Part shown: one piece after another, positions 10,343 through 25,965 of the stretch
Position numbering within the stretch: the stretch's first letter is position 1
Layout: each line of letters opens with the position of its first letter
Position numbers and translations under genes: made by a program
Source: Pseudomonadota bacterium
GTDB taxonomy: Bacteria; Pseudomonadota; Gammaproteobacteria; Xanthomonadales; SZUA-38
NCBI GenBank assembly: GCA_039188505.1
Contig: JBCCZC010000021.1
Coordinates: 1-25,965, forward strand
Length of the DNA: 25,965 nt
Reading direction: 5' to 3'
The notes under the pieces: generated by a model
Database searches by the model: none
Told to the model about the DNA's origin: nothing
Seen by the model: only the letters and a program-made list of their open reading frames with translations

Positions 10343-10594
10343 ATGACGGACAAGACCATCAAGCGAGTCCAGACGGGCATGCGCATCGAACAGCGCCTGC
10401 TCAAGGTGATGAAGGGCCTGGCTGAGTACCTTGATCTGTCGCTCGGTGACCTGACCGAAGGCATCGTGCTGCATGCGCTCGACGGGAAGGACCCGTTCGG
10501 CGAGTCGACTCGGGCAAAGATCGAACAGCTACGGGCCGTCTACGACCTCGACCTGCGAGCCGAGGACAGCCACCGCTTGCACGAGGACCCATGA
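10343..10594 (+). CDS. small ribbon-helix-helix-like (CopG/Arc/MetJ-type) putative DNA-binding protein
   Basis: Strong RBS GGGAGGAG 5 nt before the ATG. 83 aa. N-terminal KRVQTGMRIEQRLLKVMKGLAEYLDLSLGDLTEGIVLHAL fits the beta-strand plus two helices of RHH repressors. Sits directly upstream of the SPFH operon. Family assignment comes from pattern only. Confidence 0.5.
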   Translation: MTDKTIKRVQTGMRIEQRLLKVMKGLAEYLDLSLGDLTEGIVLHALDGKDPFGESTRAKIEQLRAVYDLDLRAEDSHRLHEDP

Positions 10595-10624
10595 CCAGGG
10601 GCAGCCGCCGGACGCGGGCGCCAC

Positions 10625-10640
10625 TGCTATACTTTTTTGT
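10625..10640 (+). promoter_or_regulatory. extended -10 element TGcTATACT followed by a T6 run (promoter for the SPFH operon and/or terminator tail of the RHH gene)
   Basis: cacTGCTATACTTTTTTgtcgg at 10622-10643. TGn-TATACT is a textbook extended -10. A T6 run is rare in this 67% GC sequence, and an imperfect GC-rich palindrome (gcagccgccggacgcgggcgccactgc) lies just 5'. The two roles cannot be separated from sequence alone. Confidence 0.35.
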
Positions 10641-10709
10641 CGGTGCGGAGCACCAGTCCGCCGAACGTCGGAACTGGCCGCCCATCCAATGCGCGGGAGG
10701 AGAACGACA

Positions 10710-11729
10710 TTGATCTGGGATGCAGTCAAGAAGCAGCTTCGTTCGGTCATCGAGTGGGAAAATCCGGATCACTCGGTGCTGTTCGAGCTCTGGTCCGAGC
10801 GCGGCGACGAGATCAAGGATGCCTCGCAGCTCATCGTCAAGCCCGGCCAGGGGGTGGTCTTCCTCTACGAGGGCAAGATCCAGGGGGTGATGACCGACCC
10901 GGGCACCTACGATCTCCAGACGGCCAATGTACCGTTCGTCACGACGCTCGAGAAGTACATGCAGGCCTTCGAGAGCGAGCACAAGGTGGGCATCTATTTC
11001 TTCTGGCAGACCGAGTTTCTGAACCAGAAGTGGGGCACGGTCAGCCCGATCAAGTACCAGGATCCGGTCTATGACTTCCCGGTCGCCCTGCGCGCGTTCG
11101 GCAATTTCAGCTTCCGCCTGAGCGAGCCCGAGCCGTTCTTCGTGAACCTGCTGGGATCCCGGGAACGCTTCCTTGTCGACCAGCTGCGGCAAACCGTGGC
11201 GAACCGTATTCAGCAGCCGCTGACCGACCTCATGGCGGAATCAGGCTTCAGCTACGCCGAGATCGATCGCAACCGCGACGAGCTGGCAGCGGCTCTCGCC
11301 CAGAAGCTAGCGCCGGAGTTCGAGCGCCTGGGCCTCGAGATGACGGATTTCCGCATCGAGTCCACGAGCTTCGACGACGCCACCAACGACCGGATCGCCC
11401 GCATCGCGGACATCACCGCGGAAGCGCGGGCCGCAGAGAAGGCCGGCCTTGACTACGCTCAGTTGCAGCAGCTCGAGGCGCTCCGGGAGGCGGCTCGCAA
11501 CGAGGGCGGCGCGGCCGGCGCCGGCGTCGGCATCGGCGCGGGGATCGGCCTGGGCCAGACCTTTGCCCAGTCCATGGCACCCGGAGCCGCCGGCGGCGGC
11601 GGCCAGGGCGCAGCGCCTGCGGCCGATATCGAGTCGAGGCTCGAGCGGTTGAAGTCGCTCCTCGACAAGGGCCTCATCAGCGACGCCGACTACCAGGCCA
11701 AGAAGGACGCGATCCTCAGCGAGCTATGA
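10710..11729 (+). CDS. SPFH (Band-7-like, PF13421-type) domain protein with C-terminal SHOCT domain
   Basis: TTG start at 10710, preceded by GGGAGGAG with a 9-nt spacer, giving an N-terminus (L/M)IWDAVKKQLRSVIEWENPD typical of this family (MGIFDKIK...). Alternative ATG at 10689. A Gly/Ala-rich linker precedes the C-terminus LERLKSLLDKGLISDADYQAKKDAILSEL, which is a SHOCT motif. Stop overlaps the next ATG (ATGA 11726-11729). Confidence 0.85.
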   Translation: MIWDAVKKQLRSVIEWENPDHSVLFELWSERGDEIKDASQLIVKPGQGVVFLYEGKIQGVMTDPGTYDLQTANVPFVTTLEKYMQAFESEHKVGIYFFWQTEFLNQKWGTVSPIKYQDPVYDFPVALRAFGNFSFRLSEPEPFFVNLLGSRERFLVDQLRQTVANRIQQPLTDLMAESGFSYAEIDRNRDELAAALAQKLAPEFERLGLEMTDFRIESTSFDDATNDRIARIADITAEARAAEKAGLDYAQLQQLEALREAARNEGGAAGAGVGIGAGIGLGQTFAQSMAPGAAGGGGQGAAPAADIESRLERLKSLLDKGLISDADYQAKKDAILSEL

Positions 11730-12331
11730 GCCGAAGCTTCACCTGCCCCTCGTGCGGCGCCCCCCTCGAGGTCGAGCATCGATTCTCGAGGGTGGTGATC
11801 TGTGGCTACTGCAACCAGAGCGCGAACATCACCTCGGGCGGCCTCGATCCCGCGGGCAAGGGCGCGAAGCTCGTCGGCGCGCCCTCCCGGCTCAGCATCG
11901 GCGCTACCGGGCGGATCGACGAAACCGCCTTCCGGACCCTGGGCCGCCTGCGCTACGGCTATGACGGCGGCTTCTGGGATGAGTGGTTTCTCGCGCTAAG
12001 CGACGATCGTCAGCTCTGGCTCCAGGAGGATGACGGCACGTTCACGGCTTTCGAAAAAACACCGATCACCGCCGCCCTCCCCGAGTTCGACGACGTTAGG
12101 GTCGGCCAGACCATCACGGTCAATGGCCGCTCAATCTTCATCGTCGAGCGCACGGAGGCGATGATCCTCGGCGGTGAGGGCGAGCTCTACTTCAACGTGA
12201 CCCCGGGCGCCGATGTCTTCAGCGTCGACGGCTCGGCCGACGGCGAAACCTGGAGCGTCGAGTACCAGCCGGACGAGATCACCCTATCCCGCGGCACGCC
12301 CGTCGCCCACGCGGCGCTCGAGCTCGACTGA
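11726..12331 (+). CDS. zinc-ribbon + DUF4178 domain protein
   Basis: N-terminal CPSCGAPL...CGYCNQ zinc ribbon. Then DUF4178-type beta-rich region (GRLRYGYDGGFWDEWFLALSDDRQLWLQEDDGTF...). Paralogous to the N-terminal half of the next gene. Translationally coupled on both sides. Confidence 0.8.
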   Translation: MSRSFTCPSCGAPLEVEHRFSRVVICGYCNQSANITSGGLDPAGKGAKLVGAPSRLSIGATGRIDETAFRTLGRLRYGYDGGFWDEWFLALSDDRQLWLQEDDGTFTAFEKTPITAALPEFDDVRVGQTITVNGRSIFIVERTEAMILGGEGELYFNVTPGADVFSVDGSADGETWSVEYQPDEITLSRGTPVAHAALELD

Positions 12332-12333
12332 CC

Positions 12334-13821
12334 ATGGAGCTGCGCGACAAGGTCAGCGAGCTGCCGCCGGAAAAAGTCGTTGCCTACGTCAAGCGCCAGC
12401 TTTCGCTCGGCAAGATCCAACCGGTTCTCGGGCTGTTTCCCGAGATCCTCGAGTCTCACGCCGACTACGCGGAAGCACTCGAGCAGATCCACCAGCGAGC
12501 CCTGAAGAAAGAGGCGATGCTGGCCGAGACACAGCCAACGGAGCTCGACGTTTCGCAGACGACCTGCCCCGGCTGTGGCGCGGTCCTGCATCGCGCCCGG
12601 CCCGACGCCCAGGCCATCGCCTGCAGCTACTGCGGGACGCGCTTCATGCCTGCGGACCCGGCAGGAACCGCGGTGAAGACCCTGAACCCCGAGCACTACC
12701 GGCCGCGCTCGTTTCTACGCCTGGGCATGGTCGGGAGAATGGGCGAGCATCCCTGCCAGGTGGTCGGGCGGATGGTCTGGTCCGGGCGTTGCCGGGAGTG
12801 GGATAGCGAAGATCGGTCCTGGGAGTCCAACCCCTGGACCTACGAGGAATGGCTGCTGCTGACGGAGAACCGTCAGTTCTTCTACCTTTGCCACGACGAC
12901 GAAGGGCTCAGTGTCGCCACCGAATTCACGCCGTCGCAGCCGAATTTCCCCGGTCGGCAGGATCGCAAGATGACGCTTGAGGCGGGCCGCCAGAGGACGG
13001 TGGACGAACACGGCGAATACGACCTGCGCTACTTCGAGGGCGAGTTTGGCTGGGTGCCGCAGGTGGGCGAACCGATCGCGACATCGGAGTACTCCTCGGG
13101 CAAGGCGCTCCTGTCGGCGGAGGCACGCCTGCATCCCGAATCCCGGGAGATCGTCGAGCTGGAGTTTTTCCGGACCATTCCCTACACGCCGAAGCGGCTG
13201 TTCCGGGCCTTCGACCGAGACCAGGAGCTGGCGGAACTCGTGCGACGGAAGCACGTGGCGGGCCAGTACCGCCGCTGGCGCTGGGCGAGCTTCGCGACGG
13301 CGACCCTGCTGGGCATCCTCGCCATCGTGCTCGGCGGCGCCGGCGACCCGGTCTACAGCGAGACCTACGACTTCAGTGCCTTCGGCGAAGACGGCATAGT
13401 TGCCGGCCCCTTCGAGCTCAGCAAGGCCGGACGCCCCCACCGGCTGGCCCTGAGCGCCAGCATCGGGGACAACAGCTGGGCCTGGATCGGCGCGGAGCTC
13501 CTCGATACGGAGCGCAACAGCATCAACGCCATGGCCGGCGACTTCTGGCGCGAGTCCGGCTACGACGATGGACACTGGTCGGAATCGGACGTCAGGGAGG
13601 AGCAGCATTTCCGCCTGACCGAGCCGGGACGCTATTTCGTCCGGATGCAGCTCGAGGCGGGCACCGCGGGGACCGGCAGGGTCAGCCTCCAGGTCTATGA
13701 GAACACGATCCTCGGACGCTACTATGTGGTGAGCGCGGTCATCGCACTGGTGCTGGGGCTCCTGCTCCTGCGCGGCGTTCGCACCGACGACCTCCTGCGA
13801 GGCCTGCCGACAACAGCATGA
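12334..13821 (+). CDS. membrane protein with zinc ribbon, DUF4178-like domains and two TM helices
   Basis: Starts 3 nt after the previous stop. Has CPGCGAVL...CSYCGTRF and a DUF4178-like segment (VGRMVWSGRCREWDSEDRSWESNPWTYEEWLLLTENRQFFYL). TM helices WASFATATLLGILAIVLGGAG and YYVVSAVIALVLGLLLL bracket an about 130-aa domain. Stop overlaps the next ATG (ATGA 13818-13821). Confidence 0.8.
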   Translation: MELRDKVSELPPEKVVAYVKRQLSLGKIQPVLGLFPEILESHADYAEALEQIHQRALKKEAMLAETQPTELDVSQTTCPGCGAVLHRARPDAQAIACSYCGTRFMPADPAGTAVKTLNPEHYRPRSFLRLGMVGRMGEHPCQVVGRMVWSGRCREWDSEDRSWESNPWTYEEWLLLTENRQFFYLCHDDEGLSVATEFTPSQPNFPGRQDRKMTLEAGRQRTVDEHGEYDLRYFEGEFGWVPQVGEPIATSEYSSGKALLSAEARLHPESREIVELEFFRTIPYTPKRLFRAFDRDQELAELVRRKHVAGQYRRWRWASFATATLLGILAIVLGGAGDPVYSETYDFSAFGEDGIVAGPFELSKAGRPHRLALSASIGDNSWAWIGAELLDTERNSINAMAGDFWRESGYDDGHWSESDVREEQHFRLTEPGRYFVRMQLEAGTAGTGRVSLQVYENTILGRYYVVSAVIALVLGLLLLRGVRTDDLLRGLPTTA

Positions 13822-14057
13822 AACCCCTGACCCAGATCCTGATTGCCCTCGTCCTCATCGTGCTGATCGCGGTCCCCGTCCTGGGAGCGCGAAGCGGTTG
13901 GGGACTGGGAACCCAGGCGGATCAGAAGATCATTGCCGATTCCGATTCCTTCTGCCCGACCACCATGCGGGCTCCGGATGGCACCTGCCGGCGAACGGTT
14001 CGCAGCTATTACTTCGGGCGCAGCTTCATCGGCGGCGGCCCGCGTACGGGAAAATGA
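13818..14057 (+). CDS. small single-TM membrane protein, 79 aa, uncharacterised
   Basis: ATGA overlap with both the upstream gene (13818) and the downstream gene (14054). N-terminal TM LTQILIALVLIVLIAVPVLG, then CPTTMRAPDGTCRR. No family recognised. Kept mainly because of the coupling and position inside the operon. Confidence 0.5.
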   Translation: MKPLTQILIALVLIVLIAVPVLGARSGWGLGTQADQKIIADSDSFCPTTMRAPDGTCRRTVRSYYFGRSFIGGGPRTGK

Positions 14058-14362
14058 GCAAGCGGGGAGTGAGCATGAGAAACGCAACGTTGTCCGGCCT
14101 GGCGCTGATGGCCTCTAGCACCGCGGTCCAGGCCGCGGGGGATTTGACGGCCGACGCACTCCTTGCGGGCATCGTGTCGACCGTGATCTACAGCCTGCTC
14201 GGCATCGGTATGGCTATGCTCGGCTTCAAGATGATCGACTGGATGACGCCGGGCAACCTCCGTGAGCAGATCGCCGAGCACGAGAACCGCGCACTCGGGA
14301 CAGTCGTCGGCGCGACGATCCTCGGCATCTGCATCATCATCGCCGCCGTCCTCGTCTCCTGA
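14054..14362 (+). CDS. DUF350 family membrane protein
   Basis: ATG 14054 is coupled to the upstream stop. Alternative ATG 14075 has a better SD (GGGGAG) and gives signal-like MRNATLSGLALMASSTAVQAAG. Two-TM DUF350 pattern: LLAGIVSTVIYSLLGIGMAMLGFKMIDWMTPGNL...NRALGTVVGATILGICIIIAAVLVS. Confidence 0.75.
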   Translation: MSKRGVSMRNATLSGLALMASSTAVQAAGDLTADALLAGIVSTVIYSLLGIGMAMLGFKMIDWMTPGNLREQIAEHENRALGTVVGATILGICIIIAAVLVS

Positions 14363-14505
14363 GCCAGCCCGAACCGCCCTCCGCGGGCCCGCTGAGCGCC
14401 GCTGACAGCGGCCTCCTGGTCGGGAGCCTGCTGATCGTCTCCGCCTGCACGCTCGTCTACGAGCTGCTGATCAGTGCGCTGTCGTCGTATTTTCTCGGCT
14501 CGAGC

Positions 14506-15888
14506 GTGCTCCATTTCTCCATCACGATCGGGCTGTTCCTGTTCTTCATGGGCGTGGGATCCTTCCTGTCGCGCTTCTTCCATTACGACCTGCTCGACCG
14601 CTACGTCCTGATCGAAATCCTCATCGGCCTCATCGGTGGTCTGAGTGGTGTGCTGCTCTACGCGGCCTACGCGACGACCGAGCACTACTACCTGGTCGCT
14701 CTGCTCCTGATCGCCGGAATCAGTGTTCTCGCGGGCCTCGAGATTCCGCTCGTGACGCGCCTGCTGCAGGACGCCCGGGGCCTACGCCGATCGCTTTCGG
14801 ACGTCTTGGCCTTCGACTACCTCGGCGCGCTTTTCGCGGCGCTGCTGTTCCCCCTCGTACTCGTCCCCTACGTCGGCCTGCAGCGGACGGCCTTCGCCGT
14901 CGGCCTCGTGAATCTCGGCGTCGCGGGCGTCCTGCTTGCGAGGCTGTCGCCACGCCTGGGGCAGGCCGCGCCGCTGCGGCTGCTCGCCGTCGGCGTGGGT
15001 GTGATCCTCGCGCTGGGCCTGGTCTACACGAGCTCGCTCACCCGTTGGTTCGAGCAATACCTGTACCAGGACGAGATCGTCCACGTCGCCCAGACGCCCT
15101 ATCAGCGCATCGTTCTGACGCAGCGAAAGAACGACCTGCGCCTGTTCCTCAACGGCAGCCTCCAGTTCTCGAGCATCGACGAGTACCGCTACCACGAACC
15201 GCTGGTTCATCTCGCCGCCGGCGCCGCCCGGCGCCTCGATGAGGTGCTGGTGCTGGGCGGTGGCGACGGCCTGGCCGTCCGTGAGCTGCTGCGCTACCCC
15301 GAGGTGGGCCGCATCACGGTCGTGGATATCGACCCGGCCGTGACCGAGCTGGCGTCGACCCACGCCATGCTGCGCTCCCTCAACGCCGGCGCGCTGCAGG
15401 ACCCGCGGGTCTCCATCGTTCACCAGGACGCCTTCGAGTATCTCGAGGGTGCGTCGACGCGCTACAACCTCGTCGTTGCCGATCTGCCGGATCCATCAAC
15501 GCTGGATCTCGGCAAGCTCTACACGGTCACCTTCTACCGCCTCCTGCAAGCCCGCCTCGCGGCCGACGGCGTCTTCGTGACCCAGGCCTCGTCTCCGTTC
15601 TTCGCCCGCAAAGCCTATTGGTGCATCGGCGCGACGCTCGGCGAGGTCTTCGACGAGGTCGTTCCGGTCCAGAGCTACGTCCCCGCCTTCGGCCTCTGGG
15701 GATTCCACATCGCCAGCCAGGCCTCACTGGCTTTCGAAGCCCGCCCGCTCCCGTCGGACCTCCGCTTCGCCGAGGCTGGCTATGCAGGTCGCGCCCGCCA
15801 CCTGCCTCCCGACGTCGGCCCGCTGGATGTCGACGTCAACCGGCTCGAGAACCAGGTCCTGGTGCAGTACTACAGCACGGCAAACTGA
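14506..15888 (+). CDS. speE: polytopic-membrane polyamine aminopropyltransferase (spermidine/spermine synthase family) with N-terminal multi-TM domain
   Basis: C-terminal SpeE fold (VLVLGGGDGLAVRELLRYP, ITVVDIDPAV, ADLPDPS). N-terminal TM domain homologous to membrane-anchored SpeE (IEILIGLIGGLSGVLLYAAYA; LEIPLVTRLLQ). The conserved N-terminal helix (SACTLVYELLISALSSYF) is encoded upstream of the first GTG/ATG at 14506. The frame is open back to a TGA at 14263, with no ATG/GTG/TTG in between. The true start is therefore upstream and non-canonical; see findings. Confidence 0.9.
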   Translation: MLHFSITIGLFLFFMGVGSFLSRFFHYDLLDRYVLIEILIGLIGGLSGVLLYAAYATTEHYYLVALLLIAGISVLAGLEIPLVTRLLQDARGLRRSLSDVLAFDYLGALFAALLFPLVLVPYVGLQRTAFAVGLVNLGVAGVLLARLSPRLGQAAPLRLLAVGVGVILALGLVYTSSLTRWFEQYLYQDEIVHVAQTPYQRIVLTQRKNDLRLFLNGSLQFSSIDEYRYHEPLVHLAAGAARRLDEVLVLGGGDGLAVRELLRYPEVGRITVVDIDPAVTELASTHAMLRSLNAGALQDPRVSIVHQDAFEYLEGASTRYNLVVADLPDPSTLDLGKLYTVTFYRLLQARLAADGVFVTQASSPFFARKAYWCIGATLGEVFDEVVPVQSYVPAFGLWGFHIASQASLAFEARPLPSDLRFAEAGYAGRARHLPPDVGPLDVDVNRLENQVLVQYYSTAN

Positions 15889-15999
15889 ACGTGTTGTCAT
15901 CCGGTGCCGACAGGCCACCCTGGCAAGACCCCGCGCTGCTTCTACGTTTGCGCAACGAGAGCCAGCGAGACCACCAGCTCGCCGAAAGGCACTCCGCTG

Positions 16000-16113
16000 C
16001 TACGCCTCTGAAAACAAAGCTAGCGAATCTGAGCGGCTTTGAGTGGCGCGAGCCAGTCAAAGAAGCGATACGAGCCTTCCCTCTGGTCCTCGCCCCGCCC
16101 GCAGCGCGGAGCA
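16000..16113 (+). repeat. copy A of an about 110-nt repeated structured element (hairpin with GNRA-type loop)
   Basis: ctacgcCtctgaaaacaaagctagcgaAtctgagcgg [ctttgagtggc-gcga-gccagtcaaag] aagaagcgatacgagccttccc...cgcc [second GC hairpin] ggagca. About 85% identical to copy B outside the hairpin. Inside the hairpin the sequence differs but the pairing is preserved. Confidence 0.6.
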
Positions 16114-16167
16114 ACACTACCCGTCCCTTTTGAATCGTAAACCCTTGTTGTTCTTTGATTCGGATCG

Positions 16168-16195
16168 TTGCACCCCCTGAACCCGCTGCTATAAC
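16168..16195 (+). promoter_or_regulatory. near-consensus sigma70 promoter (TTGCAC-N16-TGcTATAAC) for the 16226 ORF
   Basis: TTGCAC at 16168-16173, 16-nt spacer ending in TGc, TATAAC at 16190-16195. Sits in an AT-richer stretch. SD GGGGGAG lies 7 nt before ATG 16226. Confidence 0.5.
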
Positions 16196-16225
16196 TGAAC
16201 ACAAGGAACACTCGGGGGAGTTACC

Positions 16226-16468
16226 ATGGAAGACCGACGCCACGATCAACGCAGGCTCAACGTCCACGCCCTCAAGCGAGAGCTCAATGCCGATCAGCTC
16301 GCAACGCTGAACAGCCTGGAATCCTTCGGCTGGGAGCTCAAGTTCGTCCGCAAGCCGCTCTTCCAGGACCCGGTGCCCATCGTCTTCGACGACTCCCGCG
16401 AACACTTCGCGGTCCTCGAAGCCGACGGCACCCTGAACGAGGAGCCGGGGATCACGATCAGGGATTAG
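16226..16468 (+). CDS. small hypothetical protein, 80 aa
   Basis: Strong SD (GGGGGAG) and promoter upstream. Hydrophilic. Sequence MEDRRHDQRRLNVHALKRELNADQLATLNSLESFGWELKFVRKPLFQDPVPIVFDDSREHFAVLEADGTLNEEPGITIRD. No family recognised. It is the only ORF in a lower-GC islet flanked by the two repeat copies. Confidence 0.55.
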   Translation: MEDRRHDQRRLNVHALKRELNADQLATLNSLESFGWELKFVRKPLFQDPVPIVFDDSREHFAVLEADGTLNEEPGITIRD

Positions 16469-16657
16469 TGGAGCTCGCCGTGACTCTCGGACCGGGTCAG
16501 CCCAGAGCGAGCGCCGCCTGGCCGTTCACATCCAGACCGGAATGACCGACACGGTGCTCCCTGGCCCTGGCAGAAGCGCACCGCTCCCAGGCGTTTGCAG
16601 CTCGAATAGTGGCGACACGAGCCCGCACGAACGCCTGCCACAGCCCCTCCGCACATA

Positions 16658-16697
16658 CGCTTCAACGCTTCAACGCTTCAACGCCTCTACGCTTCTG
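16658..16697 (+). repeat. short tandem array of 8-nt units (cgcttcaa x3, then degenerate cgcctcta, cgcttctg) leading into repeat copy B
   Basis: acgcttcaacgcttcaacgcttcaacgcctctacgcttctg, read directly from the sequence. The 5' end of the structured repeat begins inside the degenerate units. Confidence 0.6.
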
Positions 16698-16797
16698 AAA
16701 ACAAAGCTAGCGAGTCTGAGCGGTTTTTCGAGCACAGCTCGAAAAGAAGCGATACGAGCCTTCCCCTTGGTCTTCGCCCGGCTTGCCGGGCGGAGCA
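16688..16797 (+). repeat. copy B of the about 110-nt repeated structured element
   Basis: ctacgcTtctgaaaacaaagctagcgaGtctgagcgg t[ttttcgagc-acag-gctcgaaaa]g aagaagcgatacgagccttccc...cgcc[cggc-ttg-ccggg]cggagca. Same orientation as copy A, 688 nt apart. Lies between the convergent 3' ends of the 16226 ORF and the PilZ-domain gene. Confidence 0.6.
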
Positions 16798-16815
16798 GCG
16801 ATACGAGGCCACCAA

Positions 16816-18471
16816 TTAGTCTCGCGCATACCCCATCAGCACGACTTCCGAGGTCTTCTCGAGCTTCTCGCTCGTGGCGATGGGGCCGCAGAAGCTCTTG
16901 CGGCTGTCGCCAACGCAGATCGCGGTCGGTCCGGCGATCGCGGACATGCCCGCGGTCGCGAAGCGGTCCTTGCCATTGCCGTCCCCGTCCCGGAAGGGCC
17001 GGTAGCCCAGGGCCCGGTGCGGCACCGCGGCGTCGCCGCTCTGGGTCGCGAGCAGCGCGGCCGGAACCAGGTCGCGGCCCACCACACCGATGCCGAGCTC
17101 GATCTCGCGGACGTCGATGGCATTGAGCCAGCGCACGATGCCCATCATCCAGAGCGGAGTCCGCTCGAACAGCGAGTCCGCGCAGAGCACCACGAGTTCC
17201 CCGACGCGAACCTGGAGCCGTTCGACGTCGACAAGGCGCAGGCGATAGCCGCCGAGGCTCTGGTTGAGCACCTCCGCCTCGTAGGCCGGCGGCCGTCCCT
17301 CGACCGTGTCCTGGCCGCCGAAGCGGGGGCGGTCGCGGCTCGCCGCCTCGACGAATGACGGATCGCCATACTCCCGGAGGAAGCGCGTAAACGGTCCCTC
17401 GTCTGCAAGCATGAAGTGGGCCGCGTGCAGCCCCACGAAGAGGCGCACCATGTGATGGCCCTGCAGCCGCTGGAAGGACCGCTTGCGTCGAATCCCCCAG
17501 GTTGCCAGGAGCTGGTTGATCAGATCCCGGTCGATGATCAGTGGCTTGCCGTCGTTATCCTTGAAGGACAGCTCACGCAACTGCTCCTGGGCCGTTTCCT
17601 CGACCTCGAGCAGCCAGTTCCGGAGTTCGCGTACGTCGAAGACGAGGTCGAACTTGGCCGGGACCTCGCCATCCGTGATCAGGACCGGGGGATCGTCGCC
17701 CTCGACCTCGATTTCGAAGAGTCCGGCCGCTGCCTTGTCGAGCGACACGGCGGCATTGACCCGGATCCGACGGGCCCAGAGCGCGGCGGCCTGGGCCAGC
17801 GCCCGCATCGCGCGCTGTCCGAGCCGGCTAGGATCGCTGATGCCGAAGAGCGCGATTCGCCGGAACAGATCATCGATCGACGCCGAGGTGGCGAGGCACA
17901 GATCGGACTCGATCACCCGTTCGTGCATGTCGTTCTGGCGAGCAAACGCGTAGAGCACGTTGATCTCGTTCCACACCTGCGGGGCGGCCTGCTGGTAGAG
18001 CATGCCCTGGCGATAGAGCATCTGTTCAAGGCAGGCGAGCGCGGCATGCAGGCACCGGCCGACGGCGCGCTTCTGCATAAAGCCCACGGAAGTGGAGGTG
18101 CCGACCATGTCGTAGGCCGCGAGCCGGTAGCCCATCGACAGTTCGCGGAAGAACTGCACGGCCACGCGACCGACGCGATCACGCTTCTCGTCGAGGGGGA
18201 AGGCCGTATCGCGATAGTGCCGATCAAGGACACCCACGACGGTGAGTACCGGCGAGATGGTGTGGTCGAGCATCTCCAGGCGCTGCTTCTGGGGAATCTC
18301 CGCCTGGTTCATCTCCTGCAGTGCGAGCAGCAGCTGATTACCGGCGGCGGTCATGTTCCCGAGCGGCAGCGATTCGAGCCACGCCAGGTAGCGCTTGACC
18401 TGCGCCAGCCGTGAACTCTTCTCCGGCCGGCCCTGTTCCGGGCGATGCAGGCTGAGTTTGACTTTCTTCAT
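16816..18471 (-). CDS. PilZ-domain protein (putative c-di-GMP effector) with a large uncharacterised N-terminal region
   Basis: 551 aa. Near the C-terminus, RDRPR (RxxxR) is followed 22 residues later by NQSLGG ((D/N)xSxxG). Together these form the bipartite c-di-GMP-binding signature of PilZ domains. A beta-rich segment follows (YRLRLVDVERLQVRVGELVVLCADSL...). The about 370 N-terminal residues and about 80 C-terminal residues are unassigned. Confidence 0.7.
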   Translation of the reverse strand: MKKVKLSLHRPEQGRPEKSSRLAQVKRYLAWLESLPLGNMTAAGNQLLLALQEMNQAEIPQKQRLEMLDHTISPVLTVVGVLDRHYRDTAFPLDEKRDRVGRVAVQFFRELSMGYRLAAYDMVGTSTSVGFMQKRAVGRCLHAALACLEQMLYRQGMLYQQAAPQVWNEINVLYAFARQNDMHERVIESDLCLATSASIDDLFRRIALFGISDPSRLGQRAMRALAQAAALWARRIRVNAAVSLDKAAAGLFEIEVEGDDPPVLITDGEVPAKFDLVFDVRELRNWLLEVEETAQEQLRELSFKDNDGKPLIIDRDLINQLLATWGIRRKRSFQRLQGHHMVRLFVGLHAAHFMLADEGPFTRFLREYGDPSFVEAASRDRPRFGGQDTVEGRPPAYEAEVLNQSLGGYRLRLVDVERLQVRVGELVVLCADSLFERTPLWMMGIVRWLNAIDVREIELGIGVVGRDLVPAALLATQSGDAAVPHRALGYRPFRDGDGNGKDRFATAGMSAIAGPTAICVGDSRKSFCGPIATSEKLEKTSEVVLMGYARD

Positions 18472-18753: not shown

Positions 18754-20148
18754 CTAGCGCTTACGATTAACGAATCTTTTCAAGCGTTTGCGTTTCGCCA
18801 GCTGACGACCCGAAAGCTGGTTGCGGCGGCCCTTGAAGGGATTCTCCGACTGCCGCAGATCCAGCAGGATCGGCGTCCCCACGAGCTGGAGACGCTTGCG
18901 GAAGACGCCGGCCAGGTAGCGCCGGTAGCTGTCGGGGATCGTGTGCACCCGCGTGCCATGGATCACGATCCGGAGCGGCACGTTGCCACCGAGGTGCGCG
19001 TATCGCAGCTTGGCGGTCCGACCATGCACCATCGGGGGCTGATGGGCGTCGTAGGCACCCTGGAGAATCTCCGTGAGCCGCTTGGTGCTGAGCTGCTGGT
19101 GGGAAGCGTCGTAGGCCGCCTCCACGGCGTCCATCATCTCGCCAAGTCCGCTGCCGTGGAGCGCCGAGATGAAGACCTGCTCGGCGTAGGGGACGAAGGT
19201 CAGGCGACGATCCAGCTCCCGGCGAACGGTGTCGCGCTGTTCGGTCGGCAGGTGGTCCCATTTGTTGATGGCGATGACCAGCGGCCGCGCTGCCTTCAGC
19301 ACCAAACCCAGCAGCGTGGCGTCCTGCTCGACGATTCCTTCCTGCGCATCGATGGTGACGATGATGACATCGGACTCCTCGATCGCCCGAAGCGCCTTGA
19401 TCACGCTGAACTTCTCAACGCTCTCGTCCACCCGGGAGCGCCGCCGGACACCTGCGGTATCCACGAGGGTGAAATCGCGCCCCTCGTAGACCCAGGGAAT
19501 CTCGATCGCATCGCGCGTCGTCCCGGGCGCGTCAAAGGCGACCACCCGCTCCTCGCCCAGGAGGCGATTCACGAGCGTCGACTTGCCGACGTTCGGCCGG
19601 CCGATCACCGTCAGGCGAATGCGCCGCTCCTGCTCGCCGTCCTCGGGCGTCGGCTCGACACCGGCCGCCTCGGCAACGATCTCACCGAGCTGCGTCGTGC
19701 CCCGCCGGTGCGCCGCGGCCACGGGCAGCACCTCCTCGAAGCCGAGCGTGTAGAAATCCGCGACGGCCACCGCCTCGTCCAGCCCATCGGTCTTGTTGAC
19801 GATGATCATCACGGGCTTGCCGGCGGTGCGCAGGCGTGCGGCGATGCGCTCGTCCTCCGCCACCAGCCCCGCCCTGCCGTCGACCACGAAGAGTACGAGC
19901 GATGATTCCTCGACCGCCGCCTGAACCTGGCCCTCCGTGAGGGCGTCGATGCCCTCGGTCGCGCCCGTCAGCCCGCCGGTATCGACCAGCACGAAGTTGC
20001 CCGAAACCGTTTCGGCGATACCGTAGCGGCGATCGCGGGTCAGGCCTTCGAAATCGGCCACCAGCGCATCGCGGCTCCGGGTCAGCACGTTGAAGAGCGT
20101 TGACTTGCCGACGTTGGGTCGGCCGACGAGGGCGACGACGGGAACCAT
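18754..20148 (-). CDS. der: ribosome-associated GTPase Der (EngA), tandem GTPase domains + KH-like domain
   Basis: N-terminus MVPVVALVGRPNVGKSTLFNVLTRSRDALVADFEGLTRDR is almost identical to E. coli Der. A second G-domain is present (IRLTVIGRPNVGKSTLVNRLLGEER), and the C-terminal tail is basic. Confidence 0.95.
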   Translation of the reverse strand: MVPVVALVGRPNVGKSTLFNVLTRSRDALVADFEGLTRDRRYGIAETVSGNFVLVDTGGLTGATEGIDALTEGQVQAAVEESSLVLFVVDGRAGLVAEDERIAARLRTAGKPVMIIVNKTDGLDEAVAVADFYTLGFEEVLPVAAAHRRGTTQLGEIVAEAAGVEPTPEDGEQERRIRLTVIGRPNVGKSTLVNRLLGEERVVAFDAPGTTRDAIEIPWVYEGRDFTLVDTAGVRRRSRVDESVEKFSVIKALRAIEESDVIIVTIDAQEGIVEQDATLLGLVLKAARPLVIAINKWDHLPTEQRDTVRRELDRRLTFVPYAEQVFISALHGSGLGEMMDAVEAAYDASHQQLSTKRLTEILQGAYDAHQPPMVHGRTAKLRYAHLGGNVPLRIVIHGTRVHTIPDSYRRYLAGVFRKRLQLVGTPILLDLRQSENPFKGRRNQLSGRQLAKRKRLKRFVNRKR

Positions 20149-20157
20149 GTCGGCGCG

Positions 20158-21300
20158 TCAGGGTGCCGCTTCGAAGGCGGAGACCTTTCCGTCCTGGCTC
20201 TGCACGATGAGGAGGTTGCCGACGACCTGCGGCCGGACGACGAGCCCGCTGCTTCCGGCCTTCTGCCGGGCAACGAAGCGACCATCGTCCTCGGCCATCC
20301 AGTGCAGATAGCCTTCGAAGTCCCCGACCACGACCGCGTCACCGTGGTAAGCCGGGCCGGTAACGAGACGACGAACGAGCGCGTCCTGCTTCCACAGCGT
20401 ACCGCCGGTGAGGCGATCGATGCCCCAGACGGCATCGTTCGAGTCCGCGACCGCCAGCTGCGTGCGCGAGACGGAGACGCCGCCAGCAGAGGACATGTCC
20501 TTCACCCAGAGCAGGCGCCCGGAGTTCGCGGTAAGGGCCGCGAGCAGTCCCTGGTAGGTGACGGTGTAGATGTCGGATGCGACCATGACCATCGCGCCGT
20601 CGATGTCGACGATGCGCTCGAGCTCGGTCCGGCCCTGGGGGGCCGAAACGGTCTGTTCCCAGACCACCGTGCCGTCGGCGATGCGCAGCGCTGCCATGCG
20701 ACCGTTGTCGAAGCCGAGATACGCGTAGCCGCCGCGGAGCAACGGCTCGCCGGTGCCCCGTAACGTCAGCAGCGGCACGCTCTGGTCGTAGACCCAGGCG
20801 CGGCGCCCGGTCTCGGACTCGAAACCGAAGACGCGGCCGTCCTGGGACCGGACGATGACCATGCCATCGGCGGCCTGCGGTGCTGCGAGAATCTCCGAAG
20901 AGGTCTGGGCGCGCCAGCGCTCGGCACCGGTCACTTCGTCGAGCGCAATGACCTCACCGTCAAGCGAACCGACGAGAATCAGGTCATCGCCGAGGCCCGG
21001 ACCCGCGCTGAGCGGCTCATCGAGCTCCGTGGTCCAGAGGATGCGGCCGGTCGCCGGATCGATCGATCGCACCCGGCCACCCGCGCCAGCTGCGTGAACC
21101 TTGCCGCCACGCACCGACGGTCGCAGCCCGCCAAGCGGCAGCTTCGACTTGCCGCCGACCTCCACGCTCCAGGCCCGCTTCACGGCGATCTCGGGCGTAA
21201 AGTCGATCAGCTTCGCAGGCTTGAGCTCGTCGTCACCACCGAAGAGCGAACAGCCGCTCACCAGCAGCGCGAGGAAACCCGCCGCCGCAGCCCGGATCAT
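20158..21300 (-). CDS. bamB: outer-membrane protein assembly factor BamB (PQQ-repeat beta-propeller lipoprotein)
   Basis: Lipoprotein signal peptide with lipobox (MIRAAAAGFLALLVSGCSLF). Repeated PQQ-like blades (GKVHAAGAGGRVRSIDPATGRILW, etc.). Conserved position between yfgM and der. ATGA overlap with the yfgM stop. Confidence 0.9.
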   Translation of the reverse strand: MIRAAAAGFLALLVSGCSLFGGDDELKPAKLIDFTPEIAVKRAWSVEVGGKSKLPLGGLRPSVRGGKVHAAGAGGRVRSIDPATGRILWTTELDEPLSAGPGLGDDLILVGSLDGEVIALDEVTGAERWRAQTSSEILAAPQAADGMVIVRSQDGRVFGFESETGRRAWVYDQSVPLLTLRGTGEPLLRGGYAYLGFDNGRMAALRIADGTVVWEQTVSAPQGRTELERIVDIDGAMVMVASDIYTVTYQGLLAALTANSGRLLWVKDMSSAGGVSVSRTQLAVADSNDAVWGIDRLTGGTLWKQDALVRRLVTGPAYHGDAVVVGDFEGYLHWMAEDDGRFVARQKAGSSGLVVRPQVVGNLLIVQSQDGKVSAFEAAP

Positions 21301-21944
21301 GTCGATCCGCCGCCGTCGCCGACGTCCGCGAGGTCGTCGTACTTCATCTGCAGGAGATTGCGGTCTCCGCCGGAATCCAGCTCGTTCAGCGCAACCTCAT
21401 AGGCCTCGCGGGCCCCGGCGCGATCGCCCTGGGCCAGCAGGATGTCGCCGCGAAGCTCGGCTGCGAGGCCCTCGAAGGCGCCGCTACCGAAGCGATCCAC
21501 GGTTGCCAGCGCGGCCGCGTGCTCGCCCTGGGCGAGCTGCACGCGAGCGAGCCGCAGGCCCGCCACGGACCGCAATGCCTCCGGCTGCGCGATCTCGGTC
21601 GCCCGGCGCAGATACTGAGCCGCCTCGTCGAGGTTGCCCGCATCGTTGGCCGCCTTGGCCAGCGACAGCGCCGCGAAGCCAACGAAGGCCGACCCGTCGT
21701 GGGCGGTTTCGAACTGTTGTAGGGCTTCAGGTGCGTTCTCGCCCCGGTCCAGCGCGGCCGCAAGGTCCACGTAGCTCCGGGCCGCCGCCACGCGCTGCGA
21801 GGTCTGGAAATCCTGCCAGTAGCGGAACCCGAAGAGTCCGCCGATGGCCAGGGCCACGCCCATGAGGATGGCGCCGCCGTTGTCGCGGACCCATTGCTTG
21901 ACGGCTTCCGCCTGTTCGTAATCGTCTAGATATTCGTTCGCCAT
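21297..21944 (-). CDS. yfgM: YfgM family (UPF0070) membrane-anchored TPR-like protein, ancillary SecYEG/PpiD partner
   Basis: ATG at 21944 (MANEYLDDYEQAEAVKQWVRDNGGAILMGVALAIGGLFGFRYW) gives the typical N-terminus, single TM and TPR-like periplasmic domain. Conserved hisS-yfgM-bamB-der order. The ORF-track start at 22034 would overlap hisS and is rejected. Confidence 0.85.
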   Translation of the reverse strand: MANEYLDDYEQAEAVKQWVRDNGGAILMGVALAIGGLFGFRYWQDFQTSQRVAAARSYVDLAAALDRGENAPEALQQFETAHDGSAFVGFAALSLAKAANDAGNLDEAAQYLRRATEIAQPEALRSVAGLRLARVQLAQGEHAAALATVDRFGSGAFEGLAAELRGDILLAQGDRAGAREAYEVALNELDSGGDRNLLQMKYDDLADVGDGGGST

Positions 21945-22005
21945 CGTGTGCGTCAGTGAAATCAAAAGCCCTGCATTGTAGCCCAAGCCTGGACCACGGG
22001 TAAGT

Positions 22006-23283
22006 CTAGATGGGTGACCCCACGGAGTTCGCAAGAAGGGTCACGATCTCGTCGAAGGGCAGCGTCGTCTGCTCGCGATCGTCCCGGAGGAACTTGACCG
22101 TGAGTCGGTCGGCGGCCAATTCATCATCGCCGACCACCAGTGCCAGCCGCGCGCCGCTCCGGTCAGCCCGCTTGAACTGTGCCTTGAAGCTGCCGCCGCC
22201 GAAGTTGCATTCCAGATGGATCGTGGGCAACGCGTTCCGCAGACGCTCGGCCAGGGCCACGCCGGACCGCTGCGCCTGATCGCCGGCGAGCACCAGGTAC
22301 ACGTCGGGCGCTGCCGCCGGTGGCTCGAGGCCCTGCACCCGCGTCAGCTCGACGATGCGATCCACGCCCATGGCGAAGCCGATTCCGGGCGTCGGCTTGC
22401 CACCCTGGGCCTCGACGAGTCCGTCATAGCGGCCGCCGGCACAGATCGTACCCTGCGCCCCGAGCTGGTCGGTGATCCATTCGAAAACCGTCCGCGAGTA
22501 GTAGTCGAGCCCGCGCACCAGGCGCGGGTTGACGGTGTAGGGAATAGCCAGCGCGTCGAGCACGGCCCGGACCCCGTCCAGGTGAACCCGGGATTCCTCG
22601 TCGAGGCTGGCAAGCAGCGACGGAGCCCCGGCGATCACGTCGGCAAGCGCCGGATTCTTGCTGTCGAGAATCCTGAGGGGATTCACCTCGAGCCGGCGCA
22701 GGCTGTCCTCGTCGAGGGCAGACCGGTGCTGCTCCAGGTACGCGACCAGCGTCGCGCGGTAGGCCGTGCGGCTCTCGGGGGTTCCCAGCGAATTGATCTC
22801 GAGGCGTACGTCGCTGAGCCCGAGCGCACGCCACAGCCGCGCCAGCATCGCAATCTGCTCGGCGTCGATGTCCGGTCCCGACTGACCGAAGGCCTCGGCG
22901 CCGATCTGGTAGAACTGACGGTTGCGCCCGCGCTGGACGTTCTCGCGCCGGAACATTGGCCCGCTGTACCACAGGCGGGTGACGTGGCCCTGGAGGAGAC
23001 CGTTCTGGATCGCCGCGCGGACGGTGCCCGCCGTACCCTCCGGTCGCAGCGCCAGATGATCGCCGTTGCGATCCTCGAAGGCATACATCTCCTTGGCGAC
23101 GACATCGGTCGTCGAACCCATCGCGCGAGCGAACAGCGACACCTGCTCGAGGATGGGCAGCCGTAGCTCCGCATAGCCATAGCCATCAAGAAGGTCGAGC
23201 GCCGTCCGCTCGACCCAGTGCCATCGAGATACTTCCGCGGGCACGATGTCGTACATGCCCTTGACGCGCTTGCTGGCGCTCAT
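22006..23283 (-). CDS. hisS: histidine--tRNA ligase
   Basis: 425 aa, class II aaRS motifs: MYAFEDRNGDHLALRPEGTAGTVRA (motif 2 region), GGGRYDGLVE, FAMGVDRI (motif 3). Confidence 0.95.
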   Translation of the reverse strand: MSASKRVKGMYDIVPAEVSRWHWVERTALDLLDGYGYAELRLPILEQVSLFARAMGSTTDVVAKEMYAFEDRNGDHLALRPEGTAGTVRAAIQNGLLQGHVTRLWYSGPMFRRENVQRGRNRQFYQIGAEAFGQSGPDIDAEQIAMLARLWRALGLSDVRLEINSLGTPESRTAYRATLVAYLEQHRSALDEDSLRRLEVNPLRILDSKNPALADVIAGAPSLLASLDEESRVHLDGVRAVLDALAIPYTVNPRLVRGLDYYSRTVFEWITDQLGAQGTICAGGRYDGLVEAQGGKPTPGIGFAMGVDRIVELTRVQGLEPPAAAPDVYLVLAGDQAQRSGVALAERLRNALPTIHLECNFGGGSFKAQFKRADRSGARLALVVGDDELAADRLTVKFLRDDREQTTLPFDEIVTLLANSVGSPI

Positions 23284-23316
23284 GTGATGTTCCTGCGAGA
23301 GGGGACTGCTGGGAGG

Positions 23317-24270
23317 TCAGCTGTCGTCGTCGGACGACGGCAGCTGGAAATCGGCGACATCGCGGTCGATGTGCGGCGACAGATCGAACGGCTCGCCATC
23401 GATCGCCGCCACCACCGCGTGTGCATTGCCCATGCGGGCGTCGATGCCCTCGCCAAGGGGCAGCCGGTGCGTGGTCCCGGCAGCCTGCGTGCCGAACAGG
23501 AGCCGCCGGCCACTGGCATCCCGGATGTCGACCCAGACATCCTCGCGGAGCGACAACTCCAGCACGGCCTCGAGTCGCGCCGCTTCCGGGGGCTCATCGG
23601 CGACAGCCTCGGTGTCCACCGGCAGGGCCTCGGCCTCCGCCGCCGTGTCGGCGGGCACCTCGAAGCCGGTCGCGAAGCTCGGCGCCGCCGCAGGGAGCGG
23701 CGAATCAGCGCGCTCGCGACGCGTCGTCAACCCCGTCATCGATGCGATCATCGGTACCGGATCCGCCACTTCCGTGCCGTCCGGGGCCTCGACGTCGGTC
23801 GCCGCAGGTGCATCGGCGGTTGCCCCGACGACCTCAGCAGCCTCCTGCGCATCGAACAGGGAGCCATCGAACGCGCGAATCACGATCACGAGCGCCGGAA
23901 TAGCGATCAGAGCGGTTGCGATCGAATAGCTCACAGCGCGACGATATCCCTGCATCCGCTGCGGGCGCGCGCGGGCGAGTGCCGGCATCTCCTCAGTCTG
24001 TTCGACGGCCTGGAGCGACAGCTGCTCGATCGCGTCGGACACGTCAACATCAACCAGGCGCCCATAGGAGCGCAGGTAGCCCTTGAGATAGACCGGAGCG
24101 CCCAGGACCGCCCAGCGGCCGGCCTCGATGTTGCGCACCGACGTCACCGTAAGCTTCAGCTCGGCCGCGACGGCCTCGATGGAGCGATCCCCGGCCTCGC
24201 GCGCATCACGCAGCGCGACGCCGAGGCTCTCAGCGATGCTATCGAACAGATGGGTGGTCTCGCTGCTCAT
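23317..24270 (-). CDS. rodZ: cytoskeleton protein RodZ (XRE-type HTH, single TM, C-terminal DUF4115)
   Basis: N-terminal HTH (LGVALRDAREAGDRSIEAVAAELKLTVTSVRNIEAGRW...YLKGYLRSYGRLVDVD). TM helix VSYSIATALIAIPALVIVI. Acidic/Ala-rich linker. C-terminal LELSLREDVWVDIRDASGRRLLFG (DUF4115). Sits in the conserved position after pilW/rlmN. Confidence 0.85.
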   Translation of the reverse strand: MSSETTHLFDSIAESLGVALRDAREAGDRSIEAVAAELKLTVTSVRNIEAGRWAVLGAPVYLKGYLRSYGRLVDVDVSDAIEQLSLQAVEQTEEMPALARARPQRMQGYRRAVSYSIATALIAIPALVIVIRAFDGSLFDAQEAAEVVGATADAPAATDVEAPDGTEVADPVPMIASMTGLTTRRERADSPLPAAAPSFATGFEVPADTAAEAEALPVDTEAVADEPPEAARLEAVLELSLREDVWVDIRDASGRRLLFGTQAAGTTHRLPLGEGIDARMGNAHAVVAAIDGEPFDLSPHIDRDVADFQLPSSDDDS

Positions 24271-24273
24271 GTC

Positions 24274-25035
24274 CTATTCCGAGTTCTGACTGCTGGGCCG
24301 CCGCCCCGCGTCAGGAAACAGCCGCTTCAGGCGGTCTTCGTATTGCTGGATCCCTTCCTGATTGTCGAGCGCCCGCTCGATCTCGATGCCCAGCTCGAGC
24401 GATTCCGGCAGTGGCGCTGCCGCCGATTCGTAGCGCTGCAGAAACGCACGCGCCCGAAAGGCATCGCCCTTTGCCAGGAGCAGCCGCGCCATCAGGAACA
24501 GCGCGTCGCCGAAGGCCGGATCGACCTCGAGCGACTGCCGGTAGAACAGCTCGGCCTGTTCGACGTCACCGTCGCCTTCCCAGCAGACGCCCGCGTTCGT
24601 GAGGGCCGCGGCGGGGGTTGCGTAGAACGGATCCCGGACGGCCCGCACAAGGTGATCAACGCCTTCTTCGACCTCGCCCGCCTTGCACAGGAACACCCCG
24701 TAGTTATTGAGGGCCTGCCCGGACTCCCCGTCGAGCTGCACCGCCCGACGGTAGTGTTTGCGCGCTTCCGCTTCGTTGCCGATGCGCTCTTAGATGATGC
24801 CGGCAAGCGTGTGCGCTTCGGGCGAAGACGAGTCGAACTCGAGCGCACGCTGGACCTTCTCCAGCGCGACCTCCGTGTTGCCCTGGTTGAAATAGCCGGA
24901 AGCCAGGGAGACGTTGGTCCGCGCCGCGGCGGCTCGTCGTTCACCAGCCTCCTCGCGCGTTTCGTTAGCCCGCTGGCCCGAATTTGCACAGGCGGAGAGC
25001 AGAACGATCAGCAGCGCCGGCAGCAGTCGTCTCAC
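24274..25035 (-). pseudogene. pilW: type IV pilus biogenesis/stability lipoprotein PilW (PilF in P. aeruginosa), interrupted by an in-frame TAA
   Basis: GTG start at 25035 (SD GGGGAGG 7 nt upstream) overlaps the rlmN stop (GTGA). Lipoprotein signal [19 protein letters not shown] repeats follow. At 24790-24792 (minus strand) a TAA interrupts ...AHTLAGII*ERIGNEAEARKHYRRAVQLD..., and the same frame continues to 24274. The two pieces sum to about 253 aa, the normal PilW/PilF length. Confidence 0.7.
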
Positions 25036-25965
25036 GCCATCGCCTCCCCGCTCAAGGTTTCGATCCGCAACCGGTGCCGTTCCTGACGACGGGTACGATC
25101 CTGGACGCGCCCGACGAGCTGGCCGCACGCCGCGTCGATATCGTCCCCGCGGGTCTTGCGAACGGTCGCCACCAGCCGGGATGCCATGACGATCTCCTGG
25201 AATCGGCGGATGCGCTCCGGCGATGACCGCCGGTACTGGGTGCCCGGGAACGGGTTGAAAGGAATCAGGTTGAGCTTCGACGGCACGGTGTGAAGGAGCT
25301 TCACGAGCGCGCGCGCGTGCTCGGGCTCGTCGTTGACGCCGTCGATCAGCGTGTATTCGAAGGTGACCCGGTTTCGCGTGCCGCGCACGTAGCGCCGACA
25401 GGCCTCGAGCAGCTCCGCGATCGGATACTTCTTGTTCAGCGGCACGAGCTCGTTACGCAGTTCGTCGAACGGCGCGTGCAGAGACACGGCAAGGCTGACG
25501 TCGATCTCCTCGCGGAGCCGATCGATCATCGGCACGAGGCCCGCGGTGCTAAGCGTCACGCGCTTCCCGGCCAAACCGAAGGCAAAGTCGTCGCGCATGA
25601 GCGACATGGCCGAGATCACGTTGTCGAAGTTCATGAGCGGCTCTCCCATGCCCATCATGACAACGTTGGTGATCCGGCGGTTGTTCGGATCGTGCCCGAG
25701 CGCGCGAGCGGCGGCGTAGACCTGGCCGATGATCTCGGCCGTCGACAGGTTGCGATTGAAGCCCTGCGTCGCGGTCGAGCAGAAGGAACAGTTCAGAGCA
25801 CAGCCGACCTGCGAACTCACGCACAGGGTGCCGCGGTCCCCCTCGGGGATGAACACGGTCTCGACGGCATTCTTGCCGGCCAGCCGGATCAGCCACTTGC
25901 GCGTGCCGTCCTCGGAGCGCTGCTCGGTGATGACCTTGGGTGGCCGAATCTCGGCGACGTCGGCA
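25032..25965 (-). CDS. rlmN: 23S rRNA m2A2503 / tRNA m2A37 methyltransferase RlmN (radical SAM), N-terminus beyond window edge
   Basis: Frame open to the window edge (…[55 protein letters not shown]). CxxxCxxC radical-SAM motif and MGMGEPL are present. Stop at 25032-25034. Confidence 0.9.

Follow-up and report, generated by a model that had tools for sequence, protein, structure and literature searches.

A polyamine aminopropyltransferase gene with no canonical start codon ahead of its first membrane helix, and a candidate CUG start overlapping the DUF350 stop

Proteins that join a seven-transmembrane (7TM) domain to a spermine/spermidine synthase domain have been described in polyamine operons associated with the phage shock protein (PSP) system, together with DUF350 (YjfL), DUF4178 and Band-7/SHOCT proteins (Ravi et al. 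2024, PMC11237479). That work deals with gene neighbourhoods only; start codons are not treated, and the function of the operon is inferred. Here, we describe an operon of this type in a stretch of 25,965 nucleotides (nt) from a Pseudomonadota bacterium of the Gammaproteobacteria (GenBank assembly GCA_039188505.1, contig JBCCZC010000021.1, positions 1 to 25,965 of the forward strand), which we call the window and whose coordinates are used throughout. Six genes lie at 10473-15888, encoding a Band-7/SHOCT protein, a DUF4178 protein, a 495-amino-acid protein, a 79-amino-acid protein, a DUF350 protein and, last, a 7TM-SpeE. The gene order is the one described by Ravi and colleagues, in the variant in which Band-7 plus SHOCT replaces CesT/Tir-PspA. 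The subject of this study is the last gene. Upstream of the sequence for its conserved first transmembrane helix (TM1), no ATG, GTG or TTG is present in its frame, and translation, judging from the sequence, probably begins at one of two CUG codons upstream of that helix, at 14359 or 14392.

Two bodies of work are relevant to such a start. At overlapping stop/start pairs such as ATGA and TGATG, termination-reinitiation without a Shine-Dalgarno (SD) sequence has been documented, in which the ribosomes remain bound to the mRNA (PMC6728339; reviewed in PMC12548453). The junction between the DUF350 and SpeE genes is like these pairs in that two genes of one operon overlap by 4 nt, that an SD is lacking and that similar junctions lie nearby, and unlike the pairs of Huber et al. 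2019 (PMC6728339) in that its overlapping triplet is CTG and not ATG, GTG or TTG; non-canonical start codons at overlapping stop/start junctions are not addressed in the literature on them that we searched. Initiation at CUG, in turn, reaches ~1–2% of AUG in Escherichia coli reporters, and CUG is a rare annotated start in bacteria (Hecht et al., all 64 codons). A CUG start is thus not new in principle, and no major concept is changed by one more. At this locus it is a rare but known exception that has already been annotated, so that our reading is partly anticipated: the best protein match (P0001) is GenBank MEM9301125.1, a polyamine aminopropyltransferase from a metagenome-assembled genome (MAG) of a Pseudomonadota bacterium. 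It is the same gene on the same contig, translated from CTG 14392 with the leucine read as methionine (498 amino acids) and including TM1. The choice of 14392 there is automatic, whereas the comparative geometry of the junction points to 14359 and a protein of 509 amino acids. Near-cognate bacterial starts (CUG, AUU, AUC, AUA) are read by the initiator tRNA at low efficiency, as a CUG here would be. The infC gene of E. coli starts at AUU, which serves IF3 autoregulation. Unlike infC, the present gene gives no sign of a regulatory role, and its weak codon looks as though a TTG, itself a weak start, had eroded further.

The SpeE frame is open between a TGA at 14263-14265, the 5′ limit for any start, and its own stop at 15886-15888 (plus strand, as for all features unless stated). 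Between 14266 and 14505 this frame holds no ATG, GTG or TTG; its first canonical start is the GTG at 14506-14508. Both points had been made in a preliminary description of the window, drawn from the letters alone, and held when checked directly. Its further statement that no start exists in any frame at 14362-14505 needs correcting, as there is a GTG at 14474 in another frame; what is true is that [A/G/T]TG is absent from all frames from 14263 to 14473. The resulting gap of 212 nt (14262-14474) is the longest on the plus strand, and about 1.7 such gaps are expected per window of such composition; by itself, it is within chance expectation and not significant. The missing start owes its significance to the homology of the upstream segment, not to the size of the gap. 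In-frame near-cognate codons include the CTGs reported earlier at 14329, 14359 and 14392, and further ones at 14416, 14428 and 14431, as well as ATC at 14434; upstream of TM1, CTG is the sole type. The CTG at 14359-14361, as also reported, overlaps the DUF350 stop (TGA 14360-14362) as cTGA in the SpeE frame.

The translation upstream of GTG 14506 (LLVGSLLIVSACTLVYELLISALSSYFLG) is homologous to the 7TM-SpeE family. The N-terminal 7TM domain of this family opens with a C-x-(L/I)(V/I/L)YEL helix, which in the window aligns to all relatives and is encoded at 14416-14472 (LVGSLLIVSACTLVYELLI; hydropathy peak 2.17), wholly upstream of the first canonical start and first among the seven membrane segments seen by hydropathy. 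We scored the candidate products with NF002956 (NCBIfam, PRK03612), the equivalog model of membrane polyamine aminopropyltransferases, which has a curated cut-off of 472 bits. This is exceeded from GTG 14506 (536.0 bits), CTG 14392 (579.2 bits) and CTG 14359 (584.8 bits) alike. The first helix contributes 43 bits; the profile alignment begins at codon 14380, while the 460-amino-acid product from GTG 14506, having no TM1, is aligned only from profile position 54. At the C-terminal end, a spermine/spermidine synthase domain is present (PF01564, E=1.6e-36) with both catalytic motifs intact in the translation (VLGGGDG for GGGDG, ADLPDP for D-x-x-DP), and SpeE and thermospermine synthase chains in PDB match residues 222-466.

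To place the N-terminus, we compared 164 related 7TM-SpeE loci. A MAFFT DNA alignment of the GC-rich, low-complexity spacer was ambiguous, and a codon-anchored comparison was used in its place, in which offset 0 is set at window 14461, the glutamate codon of the YEL motif. Metagenome and genome scans gave relatives of at most 52% identity, and these served family-wide statistics and not strain-level checks. Wherever the locus is complete and not truncated by the edge of its contig, a canonical in-frame start is found upstream of TM1, with the window as the sole exception; under a stricter limit (a start at −17 or further upstream), one distant locus, L072, joins it. The N-termini of unambiguous relatives span −19 to −53, a range that includes the CTGs at −34 (14359) and −23 (14392). 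An N-terminus upstream of GTG 14506, as claimed earlier, is therefore supported by the homology of TM1, by the 43 bits and by the upstream starts of the complete relatives, and the orthologue alignment that had been proposed as a check finds TM1 common to all relatives, so that the upstream similarity is not spurious. L072 is a curious case of its own (78-309 of its sequence; 45% identity, no DUF350 gene upstream). Its sole canonical start before the YEL motif is a TTG at −15, with the frame open to −77, which leaves two readings: a very short N-terminus, or another non-canonical start.

The gene shows no sign of decay. Taking L004 to polarise the changes on the window branch, we find 49 synonymous and 20 non-synonymous window-specific codon changes, against 66 and 23 on the branch of the closest relative, L001, and the number of lineage-unique amino-acid states is similar (16 in the window vs. 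19 and 17). Over the TM1 region (31 codons), pN/pS (non-synonymous over synonymous changes per site) is 0.20–0.23 relative to the two closest relatives, and 0.15–0.28 in the following 106 codons. Within TM1, the window-specific changes are three synonymous ones and one V-to-I; among the former is a switch from TCG to AGC at −12 that retains serine. Purifying selection on the window branch is thus normal, which disfavours the option, left open earlier, that the gene is N-terminally defective. Taken together, domain content, catalytic motifs and selection pattern suggest a membrane-anchored polyamine aminopropyltransferase with a 7TM domain that is intact and under selection, for which we propose the coding region 14359-15888 (509 codons).

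What singles out 14359 is the geometry of the junction in relatives, which the preliminary description had suggested inspecting. The C-terminus and stop of DUF350 are positionally conserved, reading IIIAAVLVS before the stop in the window and L001, and IIIAAVLMS in L167. In L167 (60% identity to the window), the sole possible SpeE start is a TTG within TTGA, at offset −35. In L165 and L166 (62% identity), TM1 is retained only from a TTG start at offset −32, whose overlap with the stop is 8 nt (TTGGCTGA). In the distant Bacteroidota loci L005, L089 and L091, an ATGA overlap is found at −34, the same offset as CTG 14359. Of the 67 relatives with an adjacent DUF350 gene, 21 have a canonical SpeE start in overlap with the DUF350 stop (1, 4 or 8 nt). 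Closer to the window, L001 (76% identity) has an in-frame cTGA at −43, a GTG at −28 within a 9-codon insertion and a TTG at −23, and the C of its cTGA is common to three independent assemblies of this closest relative (L001-L003). In L004 (73% identity), the SpeE ATG lies 19 nt past the DUF350 stop. The base before the TGA is the third position of the last serine codon of DUF350, TCC in the window and AGT in L167; being silent there, its change turns TTGA into CTGA without effect on DUF350. In this way, a start codon can disappear by a mutation that leaves the protein of the upstream gene unaltered.

We therefore propose the following course of events, which would account for the junction. The ancestral SpeE start would have overlapped the DUF350 stop as NTGA, with N as the silent third base of the last serine codon, and in this GC-rich lineage N would have become C, turning TTGA or ATGA into CTGA. 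A ribosome that ends DUF350 translation at UGA 14360-14362 would then most likely re-initiate on the overlapping CUG 14359 with the initiator tRNA, and would do so without an SD, as at other overlap junctions of the operon. The expected yield would be low, a few percent of that of AUG. We give this reading, initiation at CUG 14359 coupled to termination of DUF350, a probability of roughly 0.45. It is consistent with the canonical overlap starts of relatives, which stand at the same position, with the delivery of the terminating ribosome to exactly CUG 14359, with the ATGA junctions that closely precede it in the operon, at 11726 and 13818, and likewise have no SD, and with a gain of 5.6 bits against NF002956 over a start at 14392. 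The codon at −23 encodes a conserved internal hydrophobic residue, which places the ancestral start upstream of 14392. From the homology, the absence of canonical starts, the junction geometry and the selection pattern, each of them observed directly, we infer that a CUG is used and which one it is. A CTG start with translational coupling had been put forward in the preliminary description, which is probably right in kind; the cTGA now has comparative backing as the likelier of two candidate CTGs.

Several points weigh against 14359. By chance, an in-frame cTGA is expected at about 1 in 8 junctions (phase 1/3, observed in 21/68; C before TG 0.42). L001 has an in-frame cTGA as well as the GTG and TTG downstream of it (−28 and −23), and the cTGA need therefore not be a start in the clade of the window and L001. 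The segment 14362-14391 adds just those 5.6 bits and has no clear family conservation. CTG 14359 has no SD (free energy, dG, +0.7), although the same is true of most coupled genes in the window, and the GenBank protein starts at 14392 instead. Finally, a single assembly spans the junction. A contig of another strain from a different public run, L168 (Logan SRR22824305), was found via the 79-amino-acid product and corresponds to window positions 12318-14301 with 14 mismatches in 1,984 nt (99.3% identical); it breaks off 58 nt ahead of the point where DUF350 and SpeE meet. In the search for another assembly across this point, look-ups for exact matches to the 460-, 95- and 498-amino-acid products gave none, and a protein search with the N-terminal 150 amino acids gave no fragment above 59% identity.

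The alternative that survives best is a start at the second CTG (14392-14394, offset −23), where an ancestral TTG would have mutated from T to C and ribosomes would scan 30 nt from the DUF350 stop. This is possible, though we consider it less likely than 14359. L001-L003 have TTG at the aligned codon, and a change from TTG to CTG there is an equally simple history, but the difference is equally a synonymous leucine change. Past the DUF350 stop, no frame has an NTG triplet earlier than this codon, and a start there keeps 579.2 of the 584.8 bits; the N-terminus at −23 would be 1–2 residues short of the shortest natural ones (−24 and −25; L117, L012, L104). On the other side, −23 is across the family a conserved internal L/I/V/F followed by S/T, and the aligned codon is CTC in L004 and L167 and TTC in L165, whose starts lie unambiguously upstream. 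Even in L001, the gene caller picks the GTG at −28 and not the TTG. Like 14359, the codon has no SD (dG −2.6).

If neither CUG were used, the gene may have lost its start codon and be N-terminally defective, a recent loss-of-function allele with a six-helix product, if any, from GTG 14506; we regard this as improbable. GTG 14506 is the first canonical start, its 460-amino-acid product is above the NF002956 cut-off (536 vs. 472), and a very recent loss would leave dN/dS (non-synonymous over synonymous substitution rate) unmarked. However, neither the window branch nor the TM1 codons show relaxed constraint, 14506 has no SD (dG −2.2), and the loss of one helix out of seven would, as inferred from hydropathy, invert the topology of the rest, a build seen in 0 of 163 complete relatives.

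Slightly less probable still is a start inside TM1, giving a shortened first helix, either at CTG 14416 or at CTG 14431 or ATC 14434 with the assistance of a GGGAG at 14422-14426 (the whole element at 14422-14436). The GGGAG lies 4 and 7 nt before these two codons (dG −6.6), the AGC codon that creates it and the ATC codon are both window-specific substitutions, and in L072 the sole canonical start is at −15. Yet an SD of equal strength is found at 17% of random positions, which is background, and codons −16 to −10 have only synonymous window-specific changes, including the multi-step serine-to-serine switch, which implies that they are translated. The relatives whose proteins are called with such starts (P0004 and P0005) have a better TTG upstream.

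We attach a similarly small probability to a sequence or consensus error in this single-assembly MAG, the real base at 14359 or 14392 being T, A or G. The junction is covered by one assembly, the existence of a 99.3%-identical strain means that polymorphism is present, and L001 has T at the position of 14392. Consensus substitution errors are rare, however, and the C of the cTGA is common to the three independent assemblies L001-L003. An indel error is excluded as a route, as all frames lack [A/G/T]TG between 14263 and 14473. We reject as next to impossible a DUF350-SpeE fusion with no separate start, made by a programmed −1 frameshift close to the 3′ end of DUF350: within DUF350, 97 nt are open in the SpeE frame and the frames do differ by −1, but the overlap holds no X_XXY_YYZ slippery heptamer or homopolymer run, the junction region is not more structured than shuffles (z +1.25), a DUF350 domain occurs in 0 of the top 120 homologues, and the two genes of relatives are spaced by 19–41 nt or stand in different frames.

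Weak starts are unusually frequent in the 7TM-SpeE family. At loci with a single candidate start (n=83), ATG is used in 38, TTG in 23 and GTG in 22, and by cluster at 70% identity the ATG/TTG/GTG counts are 16/7/9, while start usage in model genomes is 81.8/4.35/13.8%. TTG starts are found in unrelated clades, namely the Myxococcaceae, the Granulosicoccaceae and the clade of the window itself. Weak starts (TTG or GTG in half of the lineages) may hold the membrane enzyme at low stoichiometry in an operon of envelope stress and polyamines, and such a low-abundance membrane enzyme may tolerate the further weakening from TTG to CTG.

The locus offers a clean candidate case of CUG use by re-initiating ribosomes at an overlapping stop/start. 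It may, tentatively, be a natural case in which NTGA termination-reinitiation persisted after the start had eroded to CUG through GC-biased silent drift in the upstream gene, and it is likewise possible that under such an eroded NTGA the downstream gene has remained under purifying selection since the split from the closest relative. If this is true, post-termination ribosomes are far more tolerant of non-canonical starts than 30S subunits that initiate de novo, and synonymous sites of upstream genes at overlaps could tune the expression of the genes downstream. There is also a consequence for annotation. Gene callers limited to ATG, GTG and TTG would give a 460-amino-acid protein without the first helix and with inverted topology, and P0004 and P0005 represent the same class of error. 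In L165 (2947-3003) and L166 (2938-3003), the called starts of P0004 and P0005 are a GTG and an ATG inside TM1 (offsets −14 and −11), and the TTG that keeps TM1 directly follows an in-frame TGA; these SpeE products are probably mis-annotated as truncated.

The gene order of the operon is also found in L004 and L165-L167. The Band-7/SHOCT gene (10473-11729) is followed by the DUF4178 gene (11726-12331), which overlaps it as ATGA at 11726, and then by the gene for the 495-amino-acid protein, with a zinc ribbon and a transmembrane segment (12334-13821). The gene for the 79-amino-acid protein (13818-14057) overlaps its predecessor as ATGA at 13818. For the DUF350 (YjfL-family) gene (14075-14362; PF03994, E=3e-14), two starts are candidates, ATG 14054, in an ATGA overlap with the 79-amino-acid gene, and ATG 14075, with a GGGGAG SD 5 nt before it (dG −9.1). 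The latter is more likely because of this SD and because the DUF350 genes of relatives are called at 95–96 amino acids. As for the eight other 4-nt overlaps that had been counted in the window, about seven are supported as real (2299, 4381, 4968, 11726, 13818, 14054 and, on the minus strand, 21300), and the rest involve shadow open reading frames (ORFs). We found no promoter- or terminator-like sites in 13700-16300, including between DUF350 and SpeE, and no Rfam match in 13500-17000; RNA at the junction is less stable than shuffles, as the z of +1.25 indicates.

Downstream of speE, a direct repeat of ~125 nt (15995-16120 and 16682-16804, 82–89% identical, no Rfam match) flanks a small ORF (16226-16468, 80 amino acids) that lies between speE and a minus-strand gene of 551 amino acids. 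Further along, in agreement with the assignment of the MAG to the Pseudomonadota, the minus strand at 18754-25856 carries der, bamB, a yfgM-like gene (TPR_21), hisS, rodZ and an rlmN-like radical SAM gene, in an order typical of Gammaproteobacteria.

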